This document shows, piece after piece, positions 5,462 through 21,596 of a stretch of 49,795 bases of DNA. The notes under the pieces were generated by a model. It searched no databases, was not told the origin of the DNA, and saw only the letters and a list, made by a program, of their open reading frames with translations. The position numbers and the translations under genes were made by a program. Source of the stretch: a virus; the UHGV virus genome UHGV-0206958. One strand, 5' to 3'. Numbering within the stretch: position 1 is the stretch's first letter; each line of letters begins with the position of its first letter.

Positions 5462-5815
5462 ATGGCAATCGACTATCGCCGCATGCGCGCCACGGCAACG
5501 CGGCTGCTGACGGAGAACGGCAAAGCCTACCAACTGACTCGCGGAGGTACTACCACCCGCGATCAGTACGGGAAAGAGGTTATCACCGAGCCAATTACAG
5601 CGACCGTTACCGGCGTTATCACCGAATACTCCACGCGTGAAATCGACGGTTCACTGATTGCTACGGGCGATAAGAAACTGGCGGCCACGTTTGAAACGGA
5701 AGTGCGCATTGGCGACCTCATTGATATCGACGGCAAAAAATGGCGCGTAGTTCAGCCGAATCCGGTTAAGCCCGCAGACGTGCTGATTTCCTATAACATC
5801 CAGCTGAGGACCTGA
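5462..5815 (+). CDS. Head closure / head-tail joining protein
   Basis: 117 aa, RBS AAGGGGG. Assigned by position. Confidence 0.4.
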   Translation: MAIDYRRMRATATRLLTENGKAYQLTRGGTTTRDQYGKEVITEPITATVTGVITEYSTREIDGSLIATGDKKLAATFETEVRIGDLIDIDGKKWRVVQPNPVKPADVLISYNIQLRT

Positions 5816-5817
5816 TT

Positions 5818-6417
5818 ATGACCAGTTCTGCAAATCAGCCGTTTCTGGCTGCCATTCAGTTGTTCGTAGATGGTTCAAAGCAGGAGATTGAGGAGGCGGT
5901 CCGCCGGACGGGTATCAAAATACTCGGGCGGTTGGTGGACATGTCACCTGTCGGGCAGCCAGAAATCTGGCAGGTAAACCAGACGGCATCAGCCTATAAC
6001 ACCGCCGTGCGAGAGCATAATGCGGCGCTACGTGATGATCCGGCCAACCTTACAAAAGCAGGGCGGCTCAGGCGAGGCCTGCGTGTCAACGATTCGATGG
6101 ACATCAAAAAGCCAGAGGGTTATGTCGGCGGGCGATTCAAAAATAACTGGTATGTGGGGCTCGACAGCCAGCCTACAGCGACGAACGATACCCCAGATGC
6201 TTCCGGGCAGGGTTCCAACTCCCGCGGGCTGGCGGTGCTCGAAGTATTTCGGGTGGGGCAGGTGAACTCGATTTACTTTACCAATAACCTGCCATATGCC
6301 CAGGCGCTGGAGAATGGTCATTCGAATCAGGCGCCCGGCGGCATGGTCGGACTGACCGCATTGGATGCTGCGCAATATTTCCGAGAGGCAATGAGCGAGG
6401 TACGCAATGGTCGGTGA
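5818..6417 (+). CDS. Tail completion / neck protein (HK97 gp10-like)
   Basis: 199 aa, ATG overlaps the previous stop (TGATTATG). Assigned by position. Confidence 0.4.
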   Translation: MTSSANQPFLAAIQLFVDGSKQEIEEAVRRTGIKILGRLVDMSPVGQPEIWQVNQTASAYNTAVREHNAALRDDPANLTKAGRLRRGLRVNDSMDIKKPEGYVGGRFKNNWYVGLDSQPTATNDTPDASGQGSNSRGLAVLEVFRVGQVNSIYFTNNLPYAQALENGHSNQAPGGMVGLTALDAAQYFREAMSEVRNGR

Positions 6418-6899: not shown

Positions 6900-7832
6900 A
6901 TGGCATTCGCAATCCCTAACGGCTCGCGTGTGAACGTGGCCAAGGCCTATCAAGCCCCGATCACCTTTACCGCAGCCTCTAACGCGACGGAATGCGAACT
7001 GACCGTTGCATCGGCCTCCGGCATTCTGGCTGGTGACGTAGTTCAGGTGAGTTCCGGCTGGTTAAAGCTCGATAACATGGTGCTGCGCGTAAAATCGGTG
7101 ACCAGTAATAAAATCGTGCTGGAAGCATTCGATACTACCGACACCACCAAATTCCCGGCAGGCACTGGCGCGGGCACGCTGCGCAAAATCGACTCATGGA
7201 TCACCATGCCTCAGGTGATGACACTATCAACTGAAGGCGGTGACCAGCAGACCATCAGCGTGCAGTTCCTGGAAGATGACAAAGCGCGAACCATCCCAAC
7301 ATTTAAAAACGCGGTGGTTCAGGTTTACACCTTTGCGCATGACCCTCAACTGGCGATCTACAAACGCCTCATTGACCTGGATGACTCCAGCGATACAACG
7401 GCGGTCTGGTTCCATAACCCACGCGGCAAAGCCGATCGTTTCTACTCAGCCAAAGTATCGTTCCAGCGCGTACCGCGCACGGAAATCAACGCCGTGGAAA
7501 GTAACGAGGCGCGCATGAACTTCGAATCGGACATGCAGATTTACCCGATCGCCGATTCATCCGTGACGCCGCTGGCGTTCCTGACCGACCTGCCGGCCAC
7601 CAAGTCCGTTGCCACAGGCGCAGCGCTGGATCTGGCAGTGGTAATGAAGGGCGGCTCAGCACCTTACACCTACGTTTGGAAGAAAGGCAGCACCGCTATT
7701 CCGGGCAAAACCGCATCGACGCTCAACATTTCGTCCGTCGTGTCCGGGGATGCTGGCGTTTACACCTGTGAAGTCACCGACGCCGCGGGCAAAACCATCA
7801 CCTCTACTGCGTGTACTGTCACGGTCAGCTAA
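6900..7832 (+). CDS. Major tail protein with C-terminal Ig-like domain
   Basis: 310 aa, RBS AGGAGAG. The C-terminal roughly 90 aa (YTYVWKKGS...GVYTCEVTD...CTVTVS) is an I-set/Big-like Ig fold, as seen in lambda gpV-type tail tube proteins. Confidence 0.8.
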   Translation: MAFAIPNGSRVNVAKAYQAPITFTAASNATECELTVASASGILAGDVVQVSSGWLKLDNMVLRVKSVTSNKIVLEAFDTTDTTKFPAGTGAGTLRKIDSWITMPQVMTLSTEGGDQQTISVQFLEDDKARTIPTFKNAVVQVYTFAHDPQLAIYKRLIDLDDSSDTTAVWFHNPRGKADRFYSAKVSFQRVPRTEINAVESNEARMNFESDMQIYPIADSSVTPLAFLTDLPATKSVATGAALDLAVVMKGGSAPYTYVWKKGSTAIPGKTASTLNISSVVSGDAGVYTCEVTDAAGKTITSTACTVTVS

Positions 7833-8258: not shown

Positions 8259-8312
8259 GTGAGCCTGGGCAAACCGTTAACTTTCGGCGGATTTGCCGTG
8301 CGACAGGCTCAC
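8259..8312 (+). other. Nested stem-loop in the 5' leader of the next gene
   Basis: GTGAGCCTG ... CAGGCTCAC outer stem with an inner GGCAAA/TTTGCC stem. No T-run follows. Confidence 0.4.
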
Positions 8313-8331
8313 GTCTAAAAGGAAAATTAAA

Positions 8332-9123
8332 ATGTCAGAACCTTCAATCGTCCCTTATGTAAAAACCACTCCCAAACCTTTTGGTGTGGACGTCGAATGG
8401 AAATGGCCGGGTGGCTGCGCGGTGCTAGAACTGCAATGCCTTCATGAAGATGGCCGACTTATGAAAGAACGCATCTTCTGGCCAGCTACCGTATGCCTTA
8501 TTTCCGGCCTCAAAGCTGGTGAGAGATTGCAGGTGCGCCTGCGTCCAATTGCAGAAGATGGCTCAGCACGAGATTGGCGAGCCGGTGACTGGATCGAAGG
8601 GGTTTCTTCTGTCGATACCGAAGAGATTATTGAGGCGCTGGACGAAGAGATCCGTAACAGCTGCGCACTTCATGGCCTTAAAGGTGGCTGGTTTGTTGAT
8701 AAAACCGGCAAGGCTTACATCCACGAGGCGCTGATCGGCAATGGCACATTGTCTACGAACTACAGCGTGAAGATGAACGTGGATTATGGTGGCAAACGGT
8801 ACGCAGCTGGCATGACCCTCGGAGTTGAAGACGGCCAGAGCAAGGTAGAGTTTAAAGCTGATCGCTTTAAGGTACATGAAGCCGCTTCATCCATTATTGA
8901 AAACGCCGTGGCATCAGCCACGAAGGCGAAGATTTCTCTCTGTGAAGAAATGGAACAGGCCATCATTGATGCCGTGCGTGAAAGCGATTTGTTCGCAGCC
9001 CTCCAGGAAAAGATTGATGCGCAAACAGCGTCAGTAGCTGGCCTGCAACAGGCGATGAACGAAGCGGTCACCAATGCTATTAAAAACGCGCTGAAGCCCG
9101 GTGGCCTGCTTTACAACCGTTAA
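8332..9123 (+). CDS. Tail-associated protein sharing a motif with the distal part of gpJ
   Basis: 263 aa from ATG 8332 (the ORF track uses a TTG at 8293). The motif YGGKRYAAGMTLGVEDGQS...KADRF matches J's NGKQYAAGMGIGVEN...LADRF, and A-IGNGT matches J's A-IGEGT. Confidence 0.5.
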   Translation: MSEPSIVPYVKTTPKPFGVDVEWKWPGGCAVLELQCLHEDGRLMKERIFWPATVCLISGLKAGERLQVRLRPIAEDGSARDWRAGDWIEGVSSVDTEEIIEALDEEIRNSCALHGLKGGWFVDKTGKAYIHEALIGNGTLSTNYSVKMNVDYGGKRYAAGMTLGVEDGQSKVEFKADRFKVHEAASSIIENAVASATKAKISLCEEMEQAIIDAVRESDLFAALQEKIDAQTASVAGLQQAMNEAVTNAIKNALKPGGLLYNR

Positions 9124-9188: not shown

Positions 9189-9527
9189 ATGACCAAATTT
9201 TCTCTGAACCCCAACCCAACTTTTTCTGTGACCGCGAGCATTCCGCGTGCTGGAGCCGAAGACGGCAAGCTGACGTTCACCTTCCGCCATAAGACACTGG
9301 AAGAGCTGCGCTCTATGGACGAAAAGCTGCAAAAGGCCGCTGAAGGTAAAAAGGCTGCTATCGAGCCGCAGGCCGACTACCTCATGGACATTGTCGAAGG
9401 ATGGGCACTGCCGGACGAGTTCAACCGCGAAAACGTTATTGTCCTTCTGCGGAACTATCCACGCGCGTTCGACAGCATCGGTCTGGCATACACCAAAGAG
9501 CTGATGGGTATCCGCGAAAAAAACTGA
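9189..9527 (+). CDS. Tail assembly chaperone (gpG-like)
   Basis: 112 aa, immediately upstream of the tape-measure gene. Ends at an A7 slippery run. Confidence 0.7.
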   Translation: MTKFSLNPNPTFSVTASIPRAGAEDGKLTFTFRHKTLEELRSMDEKLQKAAEGKKAAIEPQADYLMDIVEGWALPDEFNRENVIVLLRNYPRAFDSIGLAYTKELMGIREKN

Positions 9528-9832
9528 GGCAGGTCGCCGCAGCGTTGTACACGCCGGGACCGACGCTCGCGGAGCTGAGCGCTTTTGGTTTGACGCCTGA
9601 GGACGTGGAGGAAGAGGTGGGGATCCTGCCCTCTGTGTGGAAGTCTTTCACCATCTTCTCTGCCCTGGCAACCCAGTGGCGAGTCGGCGCGAGCGGGGCG
9701 ACCGGCCTTGATTACAACGTTCTCCCCTGGATGTTCGAGTTACACGGGGTTGAGGATGCGGCGGCCTGCATGGCTGACCTTCAAATTATGGAAAGCGAGG
9801 CTCTCAAGGTAATGCATAAGGAGACGAAATAA
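9189..9832 (+). CDS. Tail assembly chaperone G-T fusion produced by a -1 programmed frameshift
   Basis: The -1 frame stays open from the G stop through to the tape-measure start (track ORF 9401..9832). The G-A7-C motif is at 9516..9524. Confidence 0.6.
9517..9523 (+). promoter_or_regulatory. Slippery heptamer A AAA AAA for the G/GT -1 frameshift
   Basis: An A7 run 2 nt before the G stop. This arrangement is conserved in lambdoid tail chaperones. Confidence 0.6.
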
Positions 9833-12800
9833 TGACAGACCAGATCGCCTCGATTACTTTGCGGGCCGATGTTTCTGACCTGAAAACAGCCAGCAACGAA
9901 CTGGATAAACTCGGCCAGGCGGCGGCCGGTGCTGTAGATAAAGCAGATGATCTGAATAGCGTGTTTCGCGCTGGCGCTGAGTCTGCGAAGCAGGGCAGCG
10001 AAGGTATCAAGGAGCAGCAGAACGCGCTCAAAGGGTTGCTGGAGAATATCGATCCGGTTACCAAGGCCTTAAACCGCCTGGATGAGCAGCAAGAATCACT
10101 GCGGAAATTTCAGGCCAAAGGTTTCCTGGATACCGAGACCTTTCAGGCTTACAACAAAATCCTGGATGACACCCGTCTCAAGCTGACCGATACCGGAGAA
10201 GCCGCGGCGCGCGCTCAGGCCGAATTAGCCGCTACCCAGGCAGCAGAGAAGCAGTCCGCAGCGTTAAAGAACCTGCTGGGTTCCATCGACCCGACAATCC
10301 GTGCGTTCAACTCGCTGGATGAACAACACGCGCAGCTGGTGGCGCACTTCGAATCAGGCCGCATCAACGGCGCGCAGTTCGAGCACTTCAACGGCATCCT
10401 CAACCAGACGCGGGAGCGTCTGTCTGGCGTGGCTGACGTGCTGCCAGAGGCGCTATCCCGGCAGGAAGCTGCTGCCCGGCGGGCTGGTATCTCTGTAGGC
10501 CAGTACAGCGCAGCGATGCGTACGCTGCCTGCTCAGTTCACCGATATTGCTACTCAACTGGCTGGTGGTCAGTCGCCGTTCCTGATCCTGCTGCAACAGG
10601 GCGGACAGATTAAAGACCAGTTTGGTGGGGTTAAAGGGGCTCTAACGGGGGTGGGCGACTATTTACGCACTCTGTTAGGTTTCATTAATCCTGTAACGAT
10701 AGGTATTAGCGGTCTGGTTGTAGGCCTCGGGGCGATGGCTGTAGCTTGGTACAAAGGCAGCCAGGAAGCCAGTGAGTTTAATAAGCAGCTCATACTAACG
10801 GGTAATTATTCGGCCAGTTCGGCGAGCCAACTGTCAGACATGGCTCAAAAAATTGGAGGCTCCAGTGGTAAGGTTGCGGCTGCCGCTCGGACGCTCGCGG
10901 AGGTGGTTGGGGCAGGGACGTTTAAAACGGAGCAGCTCGAAACAGTTACCAAGGCGGCGCTGGCGATGCAGGAGGCCACTGGCCAGTCTGTTGACGCCAC
11001 CATTAAGAACTTCCAAAAGCTGTATGCCAGCCCAACCAAGGCGGCGGAGGATCTTAATTCTACGCTCCATTTCCTCACCTCATCGCAATACGGCTATATT
11101 TCGGCACTGGAGCGTCGGGGTGATAAAGAGGGCGCGGCAGAGGCGGCTGCAAAAGCTTATAGCCTAGCTGAGCAAAAGCGCAGCCAGCAAATCCTCGACA
11201 ACATGGGATTAATTGAGAGAGCTGCTGGTAGCGTCAGCAAGGCCCTTAAGGGGATGTGGGATGAACTTCTGAATATTGGTCGCCCTGAAGCTCCGAACGA
11301 CATGCTCCGCAAGATGCAGTCCGAACTTGCTGAGCGTGAGAAAGCCTTGCTTCCAGATAGACAGCGTCAGGGATATGGATATAGCTATGATGCGAGCAGT
11401 AACGATCAGGAATATGACGCACGTAGGAAAGCTCAGTTATCAGCGATAAGTGCTTTAAAGGCACAAATAGCGCCACTTCAACAAGCTGCTCAGCTTCAGG
11501 AAGATATTAGTGCTTCTATTCAGCAAGGAACCGAGGATGATAACAAGCGAACTAATGCCCTGATTTATCGAAACCGCATCCTTGAACAGTCAGCTACATG
11601 GCAGGAAAAACGCAGCAAGGCCCTGTCTGAACTTTGGAAAAATGTCGCGGCCTCGCCCGGCGACTGGAGCTCAGCACAGCGGCAGCAGGCTGTAGATGCC
11701 ATTAATAAACAGTTTCATCCGGACAAAACTCCCAAAACTCCAGCCGTTAAGGTTTCAACAGGTGATCGCTCAACCGACACCTACAATGCTGAAACTCTAG
11801 CTCTGCAAGCGCAGCTCAAAACGCTGCAGGATCATCGTGACATCAACGATGTAATCAGCCAGCAGCGTAAGCAGCAGTGGGAGTTAATCTCAAAAATCAC
11901 CATCCTCGAGTCCACAGCTAACGATCCGAAAGGGCGTGCATTAACTTTCGATGAAAAATCGTTGCTGGCGAACAAAGAGAAGCTGCTGGCCCAGGCAGAT
12001 ATTAATGCCGGACTGGGTGATCAAATTGCCAAGCAGCAAAAATTGAACTCATTGGCTGACCAGGCAACTAAGTTCGCCCAGCAACAGTCTGCCAAGCAGG
12101 CGGAAATTGCGGCAGCAGCTAGAGGCTTGTCCACCAGAGAGGCTGAAAGGGAGGCGACGCGCCAGCGCCTGACTGAATCCTACGGCTTTAACCAAGACGC
12201 TCAGAAAAAGGTTCTCGCAGATCAAGAGGAGACCTACCGGAAAGAAGATGAACTTCGCAGCGACTGGCAGGCTGGCGCAAAGCGGGGCTGGGCCGATTAT
12301 GCCGACTCAGCAACAAACACGTTTGAAGCAATGCGAAATGTGGCCGGTTCAACCTTCAGTGGTCTATCCGACATGTTGACAGATCTGGTTACTACCGGCA
12401 CTGCAAGCTTCAAAGACTTCACCAAGTCCATGTTGAAGATGATCGCGCAGGTAACGAATCAGTTGCTTGTGGCTTACGCCGTTCAGGCTGCGATGGGGTG
12501 GATTAGCGGTAGTGCTGGTGGCAACACGCCAGGCGGAGCATATGCCAGCGCTGCAAACTCTGGAGTTAGCCTGTTTGATTCCGGTGGTTACACAGGTGCG
12601 GGCGGTAAATATGAACCCGCAGGCATCGTGCATAAAGATGAGTTCGTTTTCACCAAAGAAGCCACTAGGCGGATCGGCGTAGATAACCTATATCGTCTAA
12701 TGAACAACGGTAATTTAGGCCGTTACGCTTCTGGTGGGCTTGTTGGGGGAAATCAGGCTGGGGCGGCAGACTCTGGCGTGCCAATTATCAGCGTCAGTTT

Positions 12801-12963
12801 TGGTGACATAAACATTGGTTCAGGTGGACAGGCCAATACAGGTGGCTCAGCAAATGCTGCAGCTATTGGCAGGCAACTCAACGATGCGATGATTGACACC
12901 ATTAATACTCAAGTAAGAAAACCAGGCACTCCGCTGTGGAATGCCGTTAGAGGGAAATACTAA
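9832..12963 (+). CDS. Tape measure protein (gpH-like)
   Basis: 1043 aa, helical with Q/A-rich repeats, a central hydrophobic segment and a C-terminal G-rich region. By eye the 3' third is lower in GC than the rest. Confidence 0.9.
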   Translation: MTDQIASITLRADVSDLKTASNELDKLGQAAAGAVDKADDLNSVFRAGAESAKQGSEGIKEQQNALKGLLENIDPVTKALNRLDEQQESLRKFQAKGFLDTETFQAYNKILDDTRLKLTDTGEAAARAQAELAATQAAEKQSAALKNLLGSIDPTIRAFNSLDEQHAQLVAHFESGRINGAQFEHFNGILNQTRERLSGVADVLPEALSRQEAAARRAGISVGQYSAAMRTLPAQFTDIATQLAGGQSPFLILLQQGGQIKDQFGGVKGALTGVGDYLRTLLGFINPVTIGISGLVVGLGAMAVAWYKGSQEASEFNKQLILTGNYSASSASQLSDMAQKIGGSSGKVAAAARTLAEVVGAGTFKTEQLETVTKAALAMQEATGQSVDATIKNFQKLYASPTKAAEDLNSTLHFLTSSQYGYISALERRGDKEGAAEAAAKAYSLAEQKRSQQILDNMGLIERAAGSVSKALKGMWDELLNIGRPEAPNDMLRKMQSELAEREKALLPDRQRQGYGYSYDASSNDQEYDARRKAQLSAISALKAQIAPLQQAAQLQEDISASIQQGTEDDNKRTNALIYRNRILEQSATWQEKRSKALSELWKNVAASPGDWSSAQRQQAVDAINKQFHPDKTPKTPAVKVSTGDRSTDTYNAETLALQAQLKTLQDHRDINDVISQQRKQQWELISKITILESTANDPKGRALTFDEKSLLANKEKLLAQADINAGLGDQIAKQQKLNSLADQATKFAQQQSAKQAEIAAAARGLSTREAEREATRQRLTESYGFNQDAQKKVLADQEETYRKEDELRSDWQAGAKRGWADYADSATNTFEAMRNVAGSTFSGLSDMLTDLVTTGTASFKDFTKSMLKMIAQVTNQLLVAYAVQAAMGWISGSAGGNTPGGAYASAANSGVSLFDSGGYTGAGGKYEPAGIVHKDEFVFTKEATRRIGVDNLYRLMNNGNLGRYASGGLVGGNQAGAADSGVPIISVSFGDINIGSGGQANTGGSANAAAIGRQLNDAMIDTINTQVRKPGTPLWNAVRGKY

Positions 12964-13187
12964 TGAAAATTGCAGAAGTAAAGGTCTCTGATGTTGTTTG
13001 GTATGCCAACGAAAATGGAAAGGCGATCAGTGCCTTCGTGACTTTCTATGGCCCAGACGATTGCACTCGCATTGCAAGTGTCCCTGTTAACCTGCCATAT
13101 CAGCTAGACCTGACCCTTAAGCAAGTTGAAGAGCTTGCCATTGCCACTGCTAAGGGCACGCTAAAAGCGGTCGCTACTAGTTTCTGA
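12963..13187 (+). CDS. Hypothetical protein (74 aa) coupled to tape measure
   Basis: ATG overlaps the tape-measure TAA (TAATGA). It has low GC and is the first gene of the AT-rich insertion. Confidence 0.35.
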   Translation: MKIAEVKVSDVVWYANENGKAISAFVTFYGPDDCTRIASVPVNLPYQLDLTLKQVEELAIATAKGTLKAVATSF

Positions 13188-13216
13188 TCGTTACATCCCT
13201 ATCTCCCCTGGTTATC

Positions 13217-13660
13217 ATGAGAAAAAACATGATAATCATGGGGATGATAATGAGAAAAATGTTTTGCTTAAGTTTGGCCTGTATTGCACTTACTGCGTGT
13301 AAACCTTCAGAGGAAAAAGCACTACAACTCGGGCAACAAGAAATTGCAAATGGGTTGATGGATCCCGATAGCGCCAAATTTAAAATGGTTAGGTTCAATT
13401 TGGACAAAAACCAGCAGTCCGGGGATGTTGTGAGCGGTTTCGTATGTGGCAGGGTTGCTGGGAAGAATGGGTTTGGTGCGTATGTTGGCTACCATCCTTT
13501 CTATGTTCATATCAAGATGACTCCCAAAGGGGCGTTTTCTAAAGGCGTGAATTATGAGATCGGAGAAAAAGCGATATACCCCGATGGAAGAGATGAGTCA
13601 TGGATAGATCTTGACGGAAACTCTTATGTTAGCCGCTGCGGTGCCACACCATCCAAATGA
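13217..13660 (+). CDS. Lipoprotein (moron; candidate superinfection-exclusion or surface protein)
   Basis: Signal peptide with lipobox LTAC (MRKMFCLSLACIALTAC), in an AT-rich region, with its own terminator downstream. Confidence 0.6.
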   Translation: MRKNMIIMGMIMRKMFCLSLACIALTACKPSEEKALQLGQQEIANGLMDPDSAKFKMVRFNLDKNQQSGDVVSGFVCGRVAGKNGFGAYVGYHPFYVHIKMTPKGAFSKGVNYEIGEKAIYPDGRDESWIDLDGNSYVSRCGATPSK

Positions 13661-13703
13661 GTTTATGTAGAGCCTTCTAACCACCACCACTCAACCGAAA
13701 CCA

Positions 13704-13730
13704 AGCCTCGCACATGCGGGGCTTTTTTGT
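13704..13730 (+). terminator. Rho-independent terminator
   Basis: CCTCGC-ACAT-GCGGGG followed by T6. Confidence 0.6.
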
Positions 13731-14151
13731 CGGCGCAAGGTTCGGTCTTGTTGGTTAAAATCTGAGCGCCTCTTTCAGATGGGGCCAAATACTACAGCAA
13801 TCTTTTGGTTGGTGCATTGCTATCTGGACACGGTTTTTGTGCAAAAAGTGCTATTGAGCAAGATTTTGACCGTTTGAAGCGAACCATAGGTTCAACCTAT
13901 CTCCTGTGATCGTGACAATAGTTTACTATTACCTGAGGGGTAAGTTCTGCGAAAGTGTCGTTAACTTGCAAAGTGGCCGCCTCTAAGTTCGTCGAACGTG
14001 AATGGATCTTGAGCGATACGCCCGTTGCTCAAAAATGACGAATGGTATTAAGATGAATAACAGAACATGAATTTTATAGGGCTGAAGAATCTTATCTTCG
14101 GCCTTTCTTGTCAGAGGTGCTCCAAGGAAACTGGGAGGACGTTATGCCTAA

Positions 14152-14716
14152 GAATGAAAAAGATAAGCGAAATATGCCTTTTTTTGATGCCTTTAAGACT
14201 ACTGCCGCTATTGGTTTGCTGATGCAGCAAACAGCCGCATTACATTGCTCTGAAGGCCCGCAGCCACATCCATCGTTTTACACTCTTCAGGCAAGTGTGG
14301 CAGCGAACGCGCACATGATTAGCCCTGAGATGGAGGAGTCCCTCGAATTCATCAAGGGGCTGAAAGAGATGTTACAGAAAGGTTACGTTCTCCTTTCTGA
14401 TGCTCACTTAAATGAGCGTGACTATTATATTCGCAAGCTGGACCCTGCTCAAACGGATCTGGTTGAACTTCAGCTACGCGGACTTGAGGGTGGTTTGAAA
14501 AACGTCTTTAAGAATTGCTCTGAGGCGGACAAAGAACTTCTGAAACCGTATTTGATGACGATTGCTGAAGCCCGCTCAGCTTCTACAAAGTTGAATCATT
14601 TAATTGCCCAAATGACTAAAGCTGCTGACAATTTCACCAGCGAGATTGATATGGAAGGGCTGCGTTCACTGGCAAAATATGGCACAGAGACCTTTTTCTC
14701 TGGTCGTTTCCATTGA
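14152..14716 (+). CDS. Hypothetical protein directly upstream of a YafO-like toxin (candidate antitoxin/partner)
   Basis: 188 aa from the ATG with a GGGAGGA RBS (track ORF 14108). Its stop lies 8 nt before the toxin start. It has no resemblance to YafN/Phd. Confidence 0.5.
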
Positions 14717-14724
14717 GGTGAAGG

Positions 14725-15162
14725 ATGCACGTAACTGTCACATATAATGTTAAAAGTTACGACTTCTTCTTTAAACCTATCTTCCTTGAGTTTCCGCACT
14801 TGAAACAATCATTACTTGATGATTTTTCAGCATATAAGGCCACTAATCAGCTACCCCACTACTTTGGAAGAGATACTGATTATGCAAGGCCAGCAGATAT
14901 TCAGGGTTCTGGCCTTATGCATATCCATTTAGGTTTGCATGAGAACAAACTGCTAACACCTCAAGGTAAGCAGATAGACTCCAGTACGCCACAGTGGGAT
15001 AGAACCTCAGATTCTGCTTTGCTATATGCTCAGAATCTATTTGATGAAAATCAATATTCTCTTATCGCTCTCTTCGACCCGTTAGCGCACAGTAAAGCTC
15101 AGAATTTTGACCGAATGAGACTATTGGCATCGTATGCTTTAGAGTTTAAGAATCAAATCTAA
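14725..15162 (+). CDS. YafO-family toxin (ribosome-dependent mRNA interferase)
   Basis: 145 aa, RBS GAGGTGAAGG. It aligns with E. coli YafO as recalled from memory: YK..LP..FGRD, HIHL, FDE..LIA...P..H, and a C-terminal M..LA..A.EF. Confidence 0.65.
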   Translation: MHVTVTYNVKSYDFFFKPIFLEFPHLKQSLLDDFSAYKATNQLPHYFGRDTDYARPADIQGSGLMHIHLGLHENKLLTPQGKQIDSSTPQWDRTSDSALLYAQNLFDENQYSLIALFDPLAHSKAQNFDRMRLLASYALEFKNQI

Positions 15163-15186
15163 ACCCGCTTCGGCGGGTTTTTGTTT
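15162..15186 (+). terminator. Rho-independent terminator (CCCGC-TTCG-GCGGG-T)
   Basis: Hairpin followed by TTTTTGTTT. Confidence 0.6.
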
Positions 15187-15203
15187 AATACGCTACATCC
15201 AAG

Positions 15204-15228
15204 CCCGCCTTATGGCGGGTTTTTTTAT
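15204..15228 (+). terminator. Second tandem terminator (GCCCGCC-TTAT-GGCGGGT-T7)
   Basis: Hairpin followed by T7, then immediately GGAG and the gpM ATG. Confidence 0.6.
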
Positions 15229-15237
15229 GGAGAAAAT

Positions 15238-15588
15238 ATGGCAGTTGAAACCTACGCCTGGCGCTCGCAACTCGGTGCTGGCGCGATTGAATATAGTCAA
15301 ACGGTGCGCGCTGCGCAGTTCGGTGATGGCTATGAGCAGGTTGCTGATAATGGCATTAACTCCACGGCTATTCAGGTCCCTATGAAGCATACAGGAGCAG
15401 AGGCTGAGGTTGATGCAGTCCGTGATTTCCTCCTGGCTCATACCGTGAAGGCCTTCATCATCACGCCGCCGGGAGAAGAGAAGGGGCTTTACCGTGTAGT
15501 CGCAGATTCTGTGCGGAAAAATCAGATCAGCAGCAAATTCGCTGAGCTGACATTCACTATCAAACGGGCTTATGGGGTGTATGCATAA
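15238..15588 (+). CDS. Minor tail protein M (lambda gpM homologue)
   Basis: 116 aa starting MAVETYAWRSQLG. The protein and its position immediately upstream of the L/K/I/J homologues follow the lambda tail-tip order. Confidence 0.85.
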   Translation: MAVETYAWRSQLGAGAIEYSQTVRAAQFGDGYEQVADNGINSTAIQVPMKHTGAEAEVDAVRDFLLAHTVKAFIITPPGEEKGLYRVVADSVRKNQISSKFAELTFTIKRAYGVYA

Positions 15589-16358
15589 TGGCATTAGTCG
15601 ATCAGGCGGCGATGCTGGCACCAGGTGGCAGAGTCCGCCTGGTTGAAGTTGATGCCTCAGAGTTCAGTGGCGGTATTCACCGTTTCCACTACGCGCCTTT
15701 CCCCCATACGCCGGAAGAAATTGATGCTGCCAATGGAGATGAACAAAAGCTCGGACCCAAGCCTATCTTCTTCGGTGGCAATACCTACGATTTTTGGCCG
15801 TTTCAGGTTTCAGGCCTGGAGCTATCAACAGACCAGGCGGCGGAGCCGTCTCTTAGCGTTTCCAACCTCGACGGTCATATCACGGCGCTGTGCCTCCAAT
15901 TTAAGGATATGGTTAACGCTAAAGTGAGCATTATCGACACTTACGCGGTTTATCTCGATGCCGTGAATTTTCCTGGCGGTGTAAATCCTACAGCCGATTC
16001 GTCAATGTTCACACTTCAGACCTTCTGGCTTGACACCAAAACCTCCGAAGATGACGAGGTAGTTACCTGGTCACTCAGCAGCCCGGCCGATTTGCAAAAT
16101 CTGGTCATTCCTACACGGCAAATCACCTCTCTCTGCGAGTGGGCGCTGCGCGGGCAATACCGTAGCGGCGACGGCTGCACCTACAACGGCACGGCGTATT
16201 TTGATGCGAAGGGTAATCCTGTCGCTGACCCGGCGCTGGATGTGTGCGGCGGCTGCCTGAGTGACTGCCGTAAGCGGTTTGGTTCCGGGCTGGCAGAGCC
16301 TAATACCGCGACCCTTGATTTTGGGGGCTATCCAGCCACCGTGCTTTTTTCCCGATAA
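15588..16358 (+). CDS. Minor tail protein L (lambda gpL homologue)
   Basis: 256 aa with the C-terminal cysteine cluster typical of gpL. Confidence 0.9.
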   Translation: MALVDQAAMLAPGGRVRLVEVDASEFSGGIHRFHYAPFPHTPEEIDAANGDEQKLGPKPIFFGGNTYDFWPFQVSGLELSTDQAAEPSLSVSNLDGHITALCLQFKDMVNAKVSIIDTYAVYLDAVNFPGGVNPTADSSMFTLQTFWLDTKTSEDDEVVTWSLSSPADLQNLVIPTRQITSLCEWALRGQYRSGDGCTYNGTAYFDAKGNPVADPALDVCGGCLSDCRKRFGSGLAEPNTATLDFGGYPATVLFSR

Positions 16359-17738: not shown

Positions 17739-20700
17739 ATGGAAGCGATCACTGGTGCAAAGGGTGGCAGCCAGAAGCAGCACACACCTGTAGAACAACC
17801 TGATTCGGCGCAGTCAATGGCGCGCTGCCGCATGCTGCTGGCGCTCGGGGAGGGTGAGTTTGCTGGTGGTCTGGATGCGACCAGCATTTTCCTGGACGGT
17901 ACGCCGCTGGGAAACTCAGACGGAACGATGAACTTTGAAAACGTTTCCTGGGAATTTCGGCCAGGCACACAGACCCAGACGCCGATTCCGGGTTTCCCCG
18001 CAGTGGAGAACGAAACTACAGTCGGCGTATCGCTGACAAAAGCCACGCCCTGGACGCGCGCGCTGAGCAACACCCAGATTGACGCTGTGCTCGTTCGCAT
18101 TGGTATTCCGGGTTTGCAGCAGCAGGAAAACGACGGGGATATTGTCGGCACTACCGTAAAGTACTATATCGATCTTGCTGTAGATGGTGGTGCGTTCTCT
18201 ACGGTCATGACAAGAACCGTCACAGAGAAACTCAGTTCGCTCTATGAACTAACCCACCGTATTAATCTTCCCAAAGCCAGCACTGGCTGGCAGATTCGCG
18301 TGGTGCGTGACACTGATGACAGCACCAGTCAGATGTTGCAGAACAAAACGCAGGTACAGGCGATCACTGAGGTTATTGATGCGCGCCTGCGTTATCCCCA
18401 CACGGCGTTGCTGTATGTGTCGTTCAACGCCAAATCGTTCAATAATATCCCGAAGGTTTCCTGTAAACCTAAGGGGCGCATTATCCGCATCCCTTCGAAT
18501 TACGATCCGATAGCCCGAACCTATAGCGGCACATGGGACGGGACGTTTAAGTGGGGCTGGACGAATAACCCAGCATGGATCTGGTTCGATGTGCTCACTG
18601 AGCCGCGTTTCGGACTTGGCCGACGCGTCACGGCTCAGATGCTGGATAAGTGGGAGCTTTACCGTATTGCCCAGCGTTGCGATCAGAAAGTACCTGACGG
18701 GAAGGGTGGCGACGGTACCGAGCCGCGCTTCATGTTTGACGTGTACATTCAGGCGCAGGCCGACGCCTGGCAGGTGATCAAGGATATCGCCGCAGGGTTC
18801 AATGGCATGACGTTCTGGGGCAACAATATGTTCAATGTTGTCTCGGACATGCCGGCAGATACGTCGAAGCTGCAAATCCTTACCCGCGCTTCGGTGGTGG
18901 GCAAACCGGTTTACTCGAGCGGCAGTGAAAAGACCCGCTACTCCAGCGCGCTGATTAACTTCAGCGACCCTGACAATCACTATCAGGACCGCACAACAGC
19001 GGTGATGTTCCCGGACCTGGTTAAGCAGTTCAAGTTTAAGCAGACGCAGATCACCGCAATCGGCTGTACGCGCGAGAGCGAAGCACAGCGCCGTGGCGGG
19101 TGGGCTGTGTACTCCAACTCACTTGACCGGATTATCACGCTACAGACCGGGCTTGATGGCTATGTCTACGTGCCGGGTACCGTGTTTGCATTTGCTGACG
19201 AACGCCTTTCAGGGCGTGTTTATGGCGGGCGTATAACCGGATATAACGCCGGGTTGAAGGCTGTGACAACCGATCGGGGAACCAGTGCCGTTGCGGGTGA
19301 CACACTGATGATCCGCACACGGGGCGGTACCGTTGAAAGCAGGGTGATCCAGGCCGTAAACGGCACGCAGCTGGTGGTCGCCACGCCTTTCACGGCAGAG
19401 CCGTTACCCAACGCTGTATTCGTCATCGATGCCGGGCAGTTGCGCCTGCAATACTTCCGCGTTACGAACCTGAGATTTGATGATGAAGAAAACACCTTCA
19501 CAATCACCGGGGCCGAATATAACGCATCAAAATATGATGCGGTCGATAACAATGCCCGCCTGGACACGCCGCCAATTAGTCTGATACCAACCGGTCTCGT
19601 CAACCAGCCGACCAATATCGTGGTAGCGAGCTATGACGCAGTGCGCCAGGGGCAGCGAGTGGCTACCCTGACGGCATCCTGGGATGCGCCGGTCGACAAG
19701 AACGGCAAACCACAGGCGGATGTCATAGCCTATCGGGTGCAGTGGAAGCGCGGCGACAATGAGTGGGTTAACGTGCCGGAGACTGGCCTGCGCAATATCG
19801 AAGTGGCCGGTATCTTCGATGGTGATTACCTTGTCAGAGTCAGGGCAATTAACTCTGGCGGGGCCTCAAGTCTATGGGCAACTTCAGCTCTCACGCATCT
19901 GAAAGGACGCACTGGTAATGTGCCTAAGCCGGTTGGTCTTTCTGCAACGGATAATGTTGTTTTCGGCATCAACGTAACCTGGGGATTCCCTGCTGATTCC
20001 GGTGATACGCTTAATACAGAACTGCAATACAGCCTGACCTCTGACGGTGCGAGTCCGATGCTTCTGGCTGATGTTCCGTATCCTCAGAAACTCTATCAGC
20101 AGATGGGGCTGAAGGCAGGTCAGGAATTCTGGTATCGCGCCCGGCTGGTTGACCGCATCGGGAATCAGAGCGACTGGACAGACTGGGTGCGCGGGCAGGC
20201 CAGTATCGATGTTTCCGATATCACCAATGCAATCCTGGAGGACATCAAAAGTTCTGAAGTCTTCAAGGACCTAATTGAGGATGCAGTAGCCAGCAGCGAG
20301 AAACTGGCTGAACTTTCTGATGCGATTAAGGAGAACGCCGATGGTCTGGCTGCCGCCGTAGGTTCGAATAAGCAGACCGCTGAAGCAATCATCGGAAACG
20401 CGCTGGCTATTGCCGATGTTGTCGTGCGCCAGACAGCCCAGCAGGGCGCTAACTCTGCGACATTCGAACAGCTCAGGGAGGTGATCGCCACTGAGACGGA
20501 AGCCCGCGTTACGGATGTTACTCGTCTTGAGGCGAAAACTGCCCAGAATGAAGCGGGTATTACTGATGTTCGCCAGGCGTTAGCAACGGAAACTGAAGCT
20601 CGCGCTTCTGCGGTAAGTCAATTGACGGCTGCCACTCAGGCCGCATCTGACAAAGCTGATTCAGCAGCTGCTGTAGGTGCTCAGAATACAGCATCAATCA

Positions 20701-21596
20701 CTGACCTTAGCCAGGTTGTCACGGACCTCGATTCCTCAATGGCATCACGCCTGGAAGAGCTGGGGGCACAAACTGATAAGGCCAGCGGCGGTATTCAGAG
20801 TAACTCCATCGCGCTAATTACGAGTACGCTGGCGCAGGTTGATCAGCAGGTGAGACTCAGCGCGCAGTACGGTGACAGTAAGGCCAGCATCGATCGTATT
20901 GATAATGTTATGGCAAGCGACAGGGAGGCAACAGCGCGTTCGCTGCTGAGTTTGCAGACTGACGTGAACGGCAACAAGGCAGCAATCAACAGCCTGAACC
21001 AGACGTTTTCCAATTATCAGCAGGCCACGGCCACGCAGATAAACGGCATTACGGCGACCATCAACGGGCACACTTCAGCGATCACCACCAACGCGCAGGC
21101 CATTGCTAACGTCAACGGCGACCTGAAGGCGATGTACAGCATCAAGGTTGCCGTGGATGCGAACGGAAAACAGTATGCTGCTGGTATGGGGATAGGTGTT
21201 GAGAATACTCCATCTGGCATGCAGTCGCAGGTATTATTCCTCGCAGATCGTTTTGCAGTGATGATGCAGGCAGGAGGAACCCCCACCATCGTCTTCACCA
21301 CGCAAAATGGTCAGTTAATAATCCGCGATGCTGTTATCGGGGAGGGGACGATCGGTAACAGTAAAATCGGTAATTACATCCAGTCATCAACCTGGGATGG
21401 AACAGGGAATGTCGGATGGCATATCAACAAGTCCGGGTATGCCGTGTTTAACAACGTGACTGTTCGTGGCTCGATTTACGCCACAACGGGTAACTTTGGA
21501 TTCAGTGGGCCGAACAAGGCGACGGTGATAGACAGTAATGGTGTAACTATCAACCTGACCGGAGGCGGCCGTATCGTACTTGGAGAATGGACATAA
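17739..21596 (+). CDS. Tip attachment / host specificity protein J
   Basis: 1285 aa with a lambda-J-like N-terminal two thirds and central FN3-like domains. The helical region carries an ATETEAR repeat, and the distal YAAGMGIGVEN motif is present. Confidence 0.9.
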   Translation: MEAITGAKGGSQKQHTPVEQPDSAQSMARCRMLLALGEGEFAGGLDATSIFLDGTPLGNSDGTMNFENVSWEFRPGTQTQTPIPGFPAVENETTVGVSLTKATPWTRALSNTQIDAVLVRIGIPGLQQQENDGDIVGTTVKYYIDLAVDGGAFSTVMTRTVTEKLSSLYELTHRINLPKASTGWQIRVVRDTDDSTSQMLQNKTQVQAITEVIDARLRYPHTALLYVSFNAKSFNNIPKVSCKPKGRIIRIPSNYDPIARTYSGTWDGTFKWGWTNNPAWIWFDVLTEPRFGLGRRVTAQMLDKWELYRIAQRCDQKVPDGKGGDGTEPRFMFDVYIQAQADAWQVIKDIAAGFNGMTFWGNNMFNVVSDMPADTSKLQILTRASVVGKPVYSSGSEKTRYSSALINFSDPDNHYQDRTTAVMFPDLVKQFKFKQTQITAIGCTRESEAQRRGGWAVYSNSLDRIITLQTGLDGYVYVPGTVFAFADERLSGRVYGGRITGYNAGLKAVTTDRGTSAVAGDTLMIRTRGGTVESRVIQAVNGTQLVVATPFTAEPLPNAVFVIDAGQLRLQYFRVTNLRFDDEENTFTITGAEYNASKYDAVDNNARLDTPPISLIPTGLVNQPTNIVVASYDAVRQGQRVATLTASWDAPVDKNGKPQADVIAYRVQWKRGDNEWVNVPETGLRNIEVAGIFDGDYLVRVRAINSGGASSLWATSALTHLKGRTGNVPKPVGLSATDNVVFGINVTWGFPADSGDTLNTELQYSLTSDGASPMLLADVPYPQKLYQQMGLKAGQEFWYRARLVDRIGNQSDWTDWVRGQASIDVSDITNAILEDIKSSEVFKDLIEDAVASSEKLAELSDAIKENADGLAAAVGSNKQTAEAIIGNALAIADVVVRQTAQQGANSATFEQLREVIATETEARVTDVTRLEAKTAQNEAGITDVRQALATETEARASAVSQLTAATQAASDKADSAAAVGAQNTASITDLSQVVTDLDSSMASRLEELGAQTDKASGGIQSNSIALITSTLAQVDQQVRLSAQYGDSKASIDRIDNVMASDREATARSLLSLQTDVNGNKAAINSLNQTFSNYQQATATQINGITATINGHTSAITTNAQAIANVNGDLKAMYSIKVAVDANGKQYAAGMGIGVENTPSGMQSQVLFLADRFAVMMQAGGTPTIVFTTQNGQLIIRDAVIGEGTIGNSKIGNYIQSSTWDGTGNVGWHINKSGYAVFNNVTVRGSIYATTGNFGFSGPNKATVIDSNGVTINLTGGGRIVLGEWT

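Follow-up and report, generated by a model that had tools for sequence, protein, structure and literature searches.

The virus genome UHGV-0206958, a stretch of 49,795 nucleotides (nt) that we refer to as the window, carries between two conserved tail genes a two-gene cassette that encodes a YafO-family toxin and, upstream of it, a partner protein of 190 amino acids (aa), denoted A190, which we suspect to be its antitoxin. Across the first 21 kb of the window, 65% of the length matches Escherichia phage HK639 at ~91% identity, and therefore the window evidently represents an HK639-like lambdoid siphophage or prophage, that is, a temperate virus. The cassette occupies the slot between the genes for the tape-measure protein and the gpM-type minor tail protein (the H-M junction). 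The features of this slot and its flanks are as follows.

9832..12963, plus strand: tape-measure protein gene (gpH equivalent, 1043 aa) from the open reading frame (ORF) list, the left anchor of the slot.
12963..13187, plus strand: 74-aa ORF with an ATG that shares one base with the tape-measure TAA (TAATG); phrog_2891, function unknown.
13250..13660, plus strand: lipoprotein cargo gene for a 136-aa precursor, with the signal peptide MRKMFCLSLACIALTA/C and the lipobox LTAC read from the sequence.
13703-13724, plus strand: intrinsic terminator 3' of the lipoprotein gene, with a stem of 9 base pairs (bp), 6 of them GC pairs, and a T run.
13929..13997, plus strand: two palindromes, TTACCTGAGGGGTAA (13929-13943) and GTTCGTCGAAC (13987-13997), with repeated CGTGA motifs, candidate operator sites.
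14025..14054, plus strand: promoter-like block TTGCTCAAAAATGACGAATGGTATTAAGAT (TTGCTC, 18 nt, TAAGAT), conserved across cassettes.
14078..14105, plus strand: leader hairpin P1, an 11-bp stem and then UUUCUUGU (RNAfold, -15.6 kcal/mol, z = -4.6).
14114..14143, plus strand: leader hairpin P2, in which CUCC (14120-14123) pairs with the Shine-Dalgarno GGAG (14134-14137) in both the minimum free energy and the centroid folds.
14144..14716, plus strand: gene for A190, the 190-aa partner and candidate antitoxin, with the ATG at 14144 and a GGGAGGA Shine-Dalgarno; 100% identical to HK639_17.
14725..15162, plus strand: gene for the 145-aa YafO-family (RelE-fold) toxin; 100% identical to HK639_18.
15161-15180 and 15201-15222, plus strand: two tandem intrinsic terminators found in the terminator scan, the 3' end of the cassette and the right edge of the variable slot.
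15235..15588, plus strand: gpM-type minor tail protein gene (PF05939, E = 1.1e-19), the right anchor of the slot.
15588-16358: gpL gene (PF05100).

The GC content is 0.40-0.47 over 12950-15200 compared to 0.50-0.60 in both flanks. An earlier annotation of this DNA made without database searches (hereinafter, the sequence-only reading) had described a low-GC segment of ~2.2 kb that interrupts the H-M junction, with a 74-aa ORF coupled to the tape-measure stop, a lipoprotein that has an LTAC lipobox and its own terminator, and two tandem terminators ahead of gpM, and in all these respects it proved accurate. Two of its lengths had to be adjusted: the non-coding tract that ends in a hairpin, P1, is there but spans 483 bp (13661-14143, with no convincing ORF) rather than 490 bp, and the protein encoded upstream of the toxin, although indeed family-less, consists of 190 rather than 188 aa.

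The 145-aa protein, which had been likened to YafO, matches the Pfam family PF13957 (YafO_toxin) across profile positions 2-100 of 101 in a hidden Markov model search, with high significance (E = 1.3e-20; 73.8 bits against the cut-off of 25), and shares 35% identity over 119 aa with YafO of Escherichia coli K-12. Because its score against the NCBIfam YafO equivalog NF007377, 66.5 bits, falls under the cut-off of 153, the protein appears to be a member of the YafO family but not an orthologue of E. coli YafO. Across 13 sequences, one of them K-12 YafO, there is no variation at F47-G48-R49-D50, H66, H68, Y101, P119 and H122. The AlphaFold2 model of the toxin (mean predicted local distance difference test score, pLDDT, 94; 35 sequences in the alignment) adopts the RelE-superfamily (microbial RNase) fold, its structural neighbors being toxins of this superfamily, namely, HigB, YafQ, YoeB, RelE and ParE; the search of PDB sequences produced no match, and no solved YafO structure was found by sequence. 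E. coli YafO has been shown experimentally to be a translation-dependent mRNA interferase (Christensen-Dalsgaard et al. 2010, PMC2814082), and by analogy the window toxin is likely to be a ribosome-dependent mRNA endonuclease.

Profile comparisons indicate that A190 is unrelated to YafN/Phd and falls outside every described family. Its sole match is PHROG 8416 (function unknown, E = 9.5e-87), searches of Pfam, including its antitoxin domains, and of NCBIfam and PADLOC-DB 2.0 returned nothing, and the A190 family profile aligns with E. coli YafN at an hhalign probability of only 0.2%, which agrees with the sequence-only claim that the upstream partner is not YafN and is twice its size. A match of the A190 profile to ribosomal protein S7, the only one among the PDB sequences (E = 0.008), was dismissed as spurious. 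Homologues of A190 form 34 clusters among 5.8 billion proteins, nearly all of 188-193 aa, and 36 representatives were detected at E <= 1e-3 among 1.84 billion; the few that have source names all come from Enterobacterales, and the distant members contain no Pfam domains either. In the alignment, the N-terminal MPFFD..KT.A..GLLMQQ is invariant or nearly so, the central ELQLRGLEG motif and the ARSA and HG..SGRFH motifs stand out as well, and conservation reaches the last residue, with an invariant C-terminal SGRFH-COOH. The AlphaFold2 model of A190 is entirely helical (pLDDT 74.6), with a fold that is not diagnostic. The possibility that A190 is a membrane or secreted protein was rejected given the maximum 19-residue Kyte-Doolittle hydropathy of 0.72 and the location of the conserved Cys35 outside a lipobox.

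The two genes are tightly linked. At the loci retrieved with the A190 query from assemblies and IMG/VR, a PF13957 gene is located immediately 3' wherever downstream sequence is present, and toxin relatives down to 40% identity are preceded by a partner of 188-190 aa without Pfam matches. The gap between the A190 and toxin genes is exactly 8 nt in 28 of the 29 toxin-bearing loci. The junction conforms to the pattern CAY-TGA-GGTGnAnn-(A/T)TG, so that the TGA stop of the partner sits within the Shine-Dalgarno sequence of the toxin (14714-14727 in the window, and 15 loci). In 11 of the 15 non-redundant junctions of this structure, the toxin starts with TTG, an ATG start being found only in the window/HK639 clade along with the loci L015 and L009 (we denote individual cassette-related loci by L numbers); the ATG in the window/HK639 clade may entail higher toxin translation. 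The pairwise divergence of A190 is strongly correlated with that of the toxin (r = 0.86; 0 of 2000 permutations in the Mantel test), and A190 diverges faster (0.41 vs 0.34). Antitoxins usually evolve faster than their toxins.

Because of the strict linkage, the fixed 8-nt spacing and the co-divergence, A190 is, as far as comparative genomics can tell, the cognate partner of the toxin. The pair has the general layout of a type II operon, with co-oriented adjacent genes, the partner upstream, fixed spacing and joint inheritance, and the upstream partner, the coupling, the weak toxin starts and the faster divergence of A190 all look like standard signatures of an antitoxin-toxin operon of this type. 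It therefore seems reasonable to regard A190 as a candidate new class of antitoxins. The most divergent relative of the toxin (L027:1959-2974, 40% identity) is also preceded by a 188-aa partner at the same 8-nt spacing; this partner has a very different sequence, with a hydrophobic N-terminus and no SGRFH tail, and might represent a second partner lineage. A gene with a T5orf172/MUG113 nuclease domain lies downstream in that locus.

Comparison with HK639 (NC_016158) delineates the cassette. From position 13702 on, through gpM and gpL, the window and HK639 are 98.6% identical at the DNA level, and the left edge of the shared DNA is exactly the lipoprotein terminator. HK639 resembles the window in carrying the cassette in the same H-M slot and differs from it in lacking the 74-aa ORF and in having a lipoprotein that is unrelated to the one in the window (E = 0.16). 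Because the identical cassette lies beside an unrelated lipoprotein in HK639, the lipoprotein gene of the window is a separate cargo gene and the toxin cassette a third, independent unit. In RefSeq, HK639_18 is labeled ‘YafO family toxin’ and HK639_17 ‘hypothetical protein’, and our literature search found no functional study of either.

Including its leader, the cassette measures ~1.3 kb, and it was found, leader included, in at least six different slots of temperate phages, as listed below.

Between tape measure and gpM: the window, HK639, L013, L014 and L022.
Between antiterminator Q and holin: L003.
3' of tail-fiber genes, beside DinI and integrase: L006 and L007.
Between tail tube or chaperone genes and tape measure: L008, L009 and L028-30.
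After primase: L010.
Downstream of gpL: L019.

This distribution marks the toxin-A190 pair with its leader as a mobile unit. In L006 and L007 (7155-7892), which are Serratia-type prophages, the cassette adjoins one or two DinI-family genes and the integrase gene and is placed at the end of the prophage, not within the tail cluster. Among 5,426 complete E. coli genomes, the cassette was detected in none at the megablast level; the few source names available for close homologues of the cargo proteins are from Enterobacter.

About 250 nt upstream of A190 move with the cassette (13929-14143 in the window; L003, L010, L015, L016, L019, L021, L023, L024 and L030). Within this region, the diverged cassettes L003, L019 and L024 all have TTACC-N5-GGTAA, as far from the start codon as in the window, L010 has a near copy, and the TTCGTCGAA palindrome recurs in L003 and L024, again at the same start-codon distance. 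In 11 of the 16 non-redundant cassettes, the proteins of which are only ~50% identical, the promoter-like block TTGCTCAAAaATGAnnAATGGTATTA lies 117-120 nt upstream of the start codon. The P1 stem is predicted at the same position in 15 of 15 non-redundant leaders, with stem sequences that differ between clades through compensatory changes (GCCGAAGC/GCUUCGGC, GUUGAAG/CUUCAAC, GCCGGAGA/UCUCCGGC and CCGCUUAA/UUAAGUGG); in L021 and L023, P1 is no better than shuffled sequences. P1 is followed by a U-rich tract in many leaders, and the idea that it is a general, obligatory intrinsic terminator was rejected given that this tract is missing in L021 and L030.

The second hairpin, P2, is predicted in all 15 main-family leaders that were folded, with invariant CTCC and GGAG and a variable loop; it shows no covariation because both sides are constrained. 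By masking the ribosome-binding site of A190, as the folds predict, P2 could subject A190 synthesis to post-transcriptional control, as the leader as a whole suggests. A scan of 12800-15400 against Rfam at E up to 1 yielded only weak terminator-like matches, none of them in the leader. In L007, L017, L020 and L009, the same GUCAGAGGUACUCC-Shine-Dalgarno segment is preceded by a different upstream region, unrelated to the first; inspection of these alternative regions in L007 and L020, by eye only, revealed no LexA box (CTGT-N8-ACAG).

The remaining two genes in the slot have histories of their own. The 74-aa ORF (E = 3.5e-21 against phrog_2891) is 96% identical to an ORF in the E. coli prophage in NZ_LR536430, where it also directly follows the tape-measure gene; the tape-measure protein of the window is 91% identical to the ‘phage tail tape measure protein’ annotated in that prophage. 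Downstream of the ORF, NZ_LR536430 carries other cargo, a zinc-ribbon protein and two hypothetical genes, and then gpM. In the phage collection, the ORF has no tblastn match. Because NZ_LR536430 retains both the ORF and the tape-measure gene with different cargo and HK639 is devoid of the ORF, it seems clear that the 74-aa ORF goes with the tape-measure type and not with the toxin cassette.

The lipoprotein ORF in full extends over 13217-13660, with an alternative upstream ATG at 13217 and the likelier start at 13250. It matches phrog_2320 (E = 2.6e-33), a PHROG family of unknown function, and no family in Pfam or NCBIfam. Its homologues form 9 clusters only, with Enterobacter roggenkampii as the sole named source, and SEN5, a P2-like Salmonella phage that lacks the cassette, has a relative of 46% identity in its ogr-integrase cargo slot. 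A Cor/Llp-type role in superinfection exclusion is not indicated, given that the protein matches no family of known function and its relatives occupy generic cargo slots. In HK639 (L001), the lipoprotein gene at 5553-5966 corresponds in position to 13250-13660 of the window, just upstream of the same terminator, and encodes an unrelated product of 137 aa compared to 136 aa; the presence of two unrelated lipoproteins at the same position in related phages suggests that the slot repeatedly recruits lipoprotein genes.

The best explanation for this arrangement is that the H-M junction is a hot spot for cargo genes, or morons, which in this HK639-like temperate siphophage has accumulated three independently acquired modules: the small ORF coupled to the tape-measure gene, the lipoprotein gene with its own terminator, and the terminator-bounded two-gene cassette. 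Morons are autonomous promoter-gene-terminator cargo units among the late genes of lambdoid phages, described by Hendrix, Juhala, Cumby and colleagues; examples include HK97 gene 15, which sits between tail chaperone and tape measure, along with bor and lom of lambda. The window shares with them foreign composition, as a low-GC insert between conserved tail genes, intrinsic terminators on the flanks, and a junction that holds different cargo in relatives (NZ_LR536430 and, in part, HK639), the same cargo being found at different junctions; the cassettes of L008, L009 and L028 even sit in the equivalent of the HK97 gene 15 slot. Unlike these morons, in which the cargo is one exclusion or virulence gene, the window cassette is a two-gene toxin-partner operon with a conserved ~250-nt leader and a promoter that is only putative. 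In other E. coli prophages, similarity to the window picks up again at ~15205-15220.

The single insertion postulated in the sequence-only reading thus gives way to at least three separately acquired modules in the comparison with HK639 and NZ_LR536430, and with it goes the proposal that A190, the toxin and the lipoprotein, perhaps together with the 74-aa ORF, make up one coordinated three-part island for defense or exclusion, with the lipoprotein as the receptor blocker. These genes are indeed adjacent, of the same orientation and uniformly low in GC, the slot of HK639 also holds a lipoprotein, and in the metagenomic locus L013 the same lipoprotein (86%) adjoins the same cassette. We nevertheless consider such an island very unlikely because the modules assort independently: between the lipoprotein gene and the cassette stands a strong terminator, precisely where the homology with HK639 begins; the HK639 lipoprotein is unrelated; at least five other slots house the cassette, and nothing related to the window lipoprotein could be detected near it there; and a relative of this lipoprotein exists in a P2-like phage without the cassette. 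Nothing ties the lipoprotein, with its lack of affinity to any functionally characterized family, to receptor blocking. It is even harder to believe that the genes in the slot are ordinary conserved components of the tail or its assembly, or decaying remnants without function. Their location in the tail-gene cluster would fit such a role, and the 74-aa ORF, coupled to the tape-measure gene and kept in a related prophage with other cargo, could by itself be tail-related. However, comparison of the H-M junctions shows that related prophages have gpM directly 3' of different cargo or contain none of these genes, the cassette in other phages lies beside Q and holin, primase or integrase, and, across a range of 40-100% identity, the two cassette proteins retain their full length and their invariant motifs.

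We favor, with a probability of about 0.6, the view that the cassette is a type II-like toxin-antitoxin operon in which a YafO-family RNase of the RelE fold is paired with a dedicated neutralizing protein, A190, the founder of a small new family. Under this scenario, the lysogen would transcribe the cassette from its own conserved upstream block, through the structured leader in which P2 would mask the ribosome-binding site of A190. Coupled translation of the two genes, with the TGA inside the toxin Shine-Dalgarno, the fixed 8-nt gap and, in most relatives, the weak TTG start, would keep A190 in excess, and A190 would bind and block the toxin, possibly via its invariant C-terminal SGRFH tail. 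If A190 were lost or titrated, be it through infection, because host expression is shut off or because the prophage is lost, the toxin would cleave translated mRNAs and growth would stop, the outcome being abortive infection or exclusion, or else retention of the prophage. The toxicity, its neutralization by A190, the activity of the promoter, the role of the leader and the biological pay-off are all parts of the scenario that we infer. Several observations weigh against it. A190 is twice as long as type II antitoxins typically are, its residues 1-56 are poorly defined in the model, and it contains no helix-turn-helix, ribbon-helix-helix, AbrB or Phd DNA-binding domain recognizable by Pfam or fold that could account for autoregulation. 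The toxin is near-neutral (isoelectric point, pI, 6.1) rather than basic, although E. coli YafO, too, is near-neutral (pI 7.0); a sigma-70 consensus scan did not report the conserved block at 14025-14054, which is a weak match; PADLOC-DB 2.0, searched with all four proteins of the slot at E up to 1, yielded no match, the cassette proteins included; and the co-orientation of the cassette with the late operon implies that it could be expressed mainly in lytic growth, not in the lysogen.

Some of the same features would fit A190 being an obligate partner that is not a simple sequestering antitoxin, and is instead a sensor that binds a trigger, a modifying, type VII-like antitoxin, or a chaperone or adaptor, or else the pair serving lytic growth through a shut-off of host translation timed by A190. 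Whereas antitoxin tails are short and disordered, A190 is large, with a helical core that is folded and carries invariant polar motifs; no fold that binds DNA was recognized in it; in most contexts, the cassette and the late operon have the same orientation; and the elaborate leader with its masked ribosome-binding site suggests conditional expression. Set against this, the upstream position of A190, coupled translation, weak toxin starts and faster evolution of A190 form the classic type II signature, no catalytic fold is detectable in A190, and both the flanking terminators and the conserved block upstream speak for a cassette expressed independently of late transcription; we therefore view this family of alternatives as unlikely. 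A bolder version of the toxin-antitoxin reading casts A190 as a partner class exclusive to temperate phages of Enterobacterales, a sensor-antitoxin under a riboregulated leader made up of the covarying hairpin and the masked ribosome-binding site, such that infection by a different phage or prophage loss would deplete or titrate A190 and free the YafO-type RNase; we advance it tentatively, as a possibility that falls well short of an expectation. If true, it would amount to a compact abortive-infection or addiction system that is missing from current defense catalogues.

The toxin-antitoxin operon that we favor can be compared with YafN-YafO of E. coli K-12, encoded in the dinB-yafN-yafO-yafP operon. 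The toxins share PF13957, the FGRD, HxH, Y and P..H motifs and the RelE/HigB-like fold, and in both pairs the partner gene is upstream, across a short gap. The window partner, in contrast, is all-helical, consists of 190 aa and bears no resemblance to YafN, a Phd/YefM-type protein of 97 aa, the window toxin has an N-terminal extension of ~15 aa, and the pair belongs to a mobile phage cargo cassette, whereas the K-12 pair is part of the chromosomal dinB operon. Because the defining Phd-type antitoxin is absent, the cassette is not a yafNO module; its architecture and logic are those expected of a phage moron whose cargo is a type II toxin-antitoxin operon. Combinations of this kind have precedents. 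Leplae et al. 2011 (PMC3141249) described ‘mix and match’ of type II modules, the partners of YafO in that study being limited to Phd-type and unclassified sequences, none on phages; a survey of E. coli with SLING (PMC10790755) reported 13 partner clusters for 6 YafO_toxin clusters, with 8% known antitoxins; and surveys of Pseudomonas prophages list ‘orphan’ YafO toxins. Like other swapped-antitoxin modules of the RelE superfamily, the window cassette combines a known toxin fold with an unrelated upstream partner, and unlike them, the A190 family is phage-borne and strictly monogamous with one YafO subclade. In the literature, we found no functional work on a YafO toxin with a ~190-aa partner. 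Nevertheless, the presence of the cassette in HK639, the RefSeq name of its toxin and the existence of unclassified YafO partners, noted computationally, were already known, and the finding is accordingly less new than the sequence-only reading implied.

Elsewhere in the tail cluster, the major tail gene (6900-7832) is separated from the G/T chaperone genes by a further ORF (8293-9123, plus strand, 263-276 aa). An FN3-like segment of its product is similar to residues 729-845 of the gpJ encoded in the window (17739-21596; E = 4e-12), and the C-terminal segment is similar to gpJ residues 1126-1174 (55% identity, E = 8e-11); NZ_LR536430 has a homologue under the annotation ‘phage tail tip fiber protein’. 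This ORF seems to be one more insertion, of cargo or accessory type. At 9189-9832, ahead of the tape-measure gene, overlapping ORFs of 112 aa and 143 aa, the latter DUF1799-like by the annotation of related prophages, appear to be the usual, ordinary G/GT tail-chaperone frameshift arrangement.

Because the cassette is small (~1.3 kb) and is carried by HK639, a cultured and published phage, its phenotype can be tested directly, and the leader, both conserved and structured, makes it a case in which post-transcriptional control of a toxin-antitoxin operon could be put to the test. Should the pair turn out to have no phenotype, the region would be one more example of moron mosaicism at a tail-gene junction. 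If, conversely, A190 is confirmed as the neutralizing partner, it would represent a new structural class of antitoxins for the poorly studied YafO branch of the RelE superfamily, and this branch would gain an ecological setting, that of a portable cassette hopping between the cargo slots of temperate phages.

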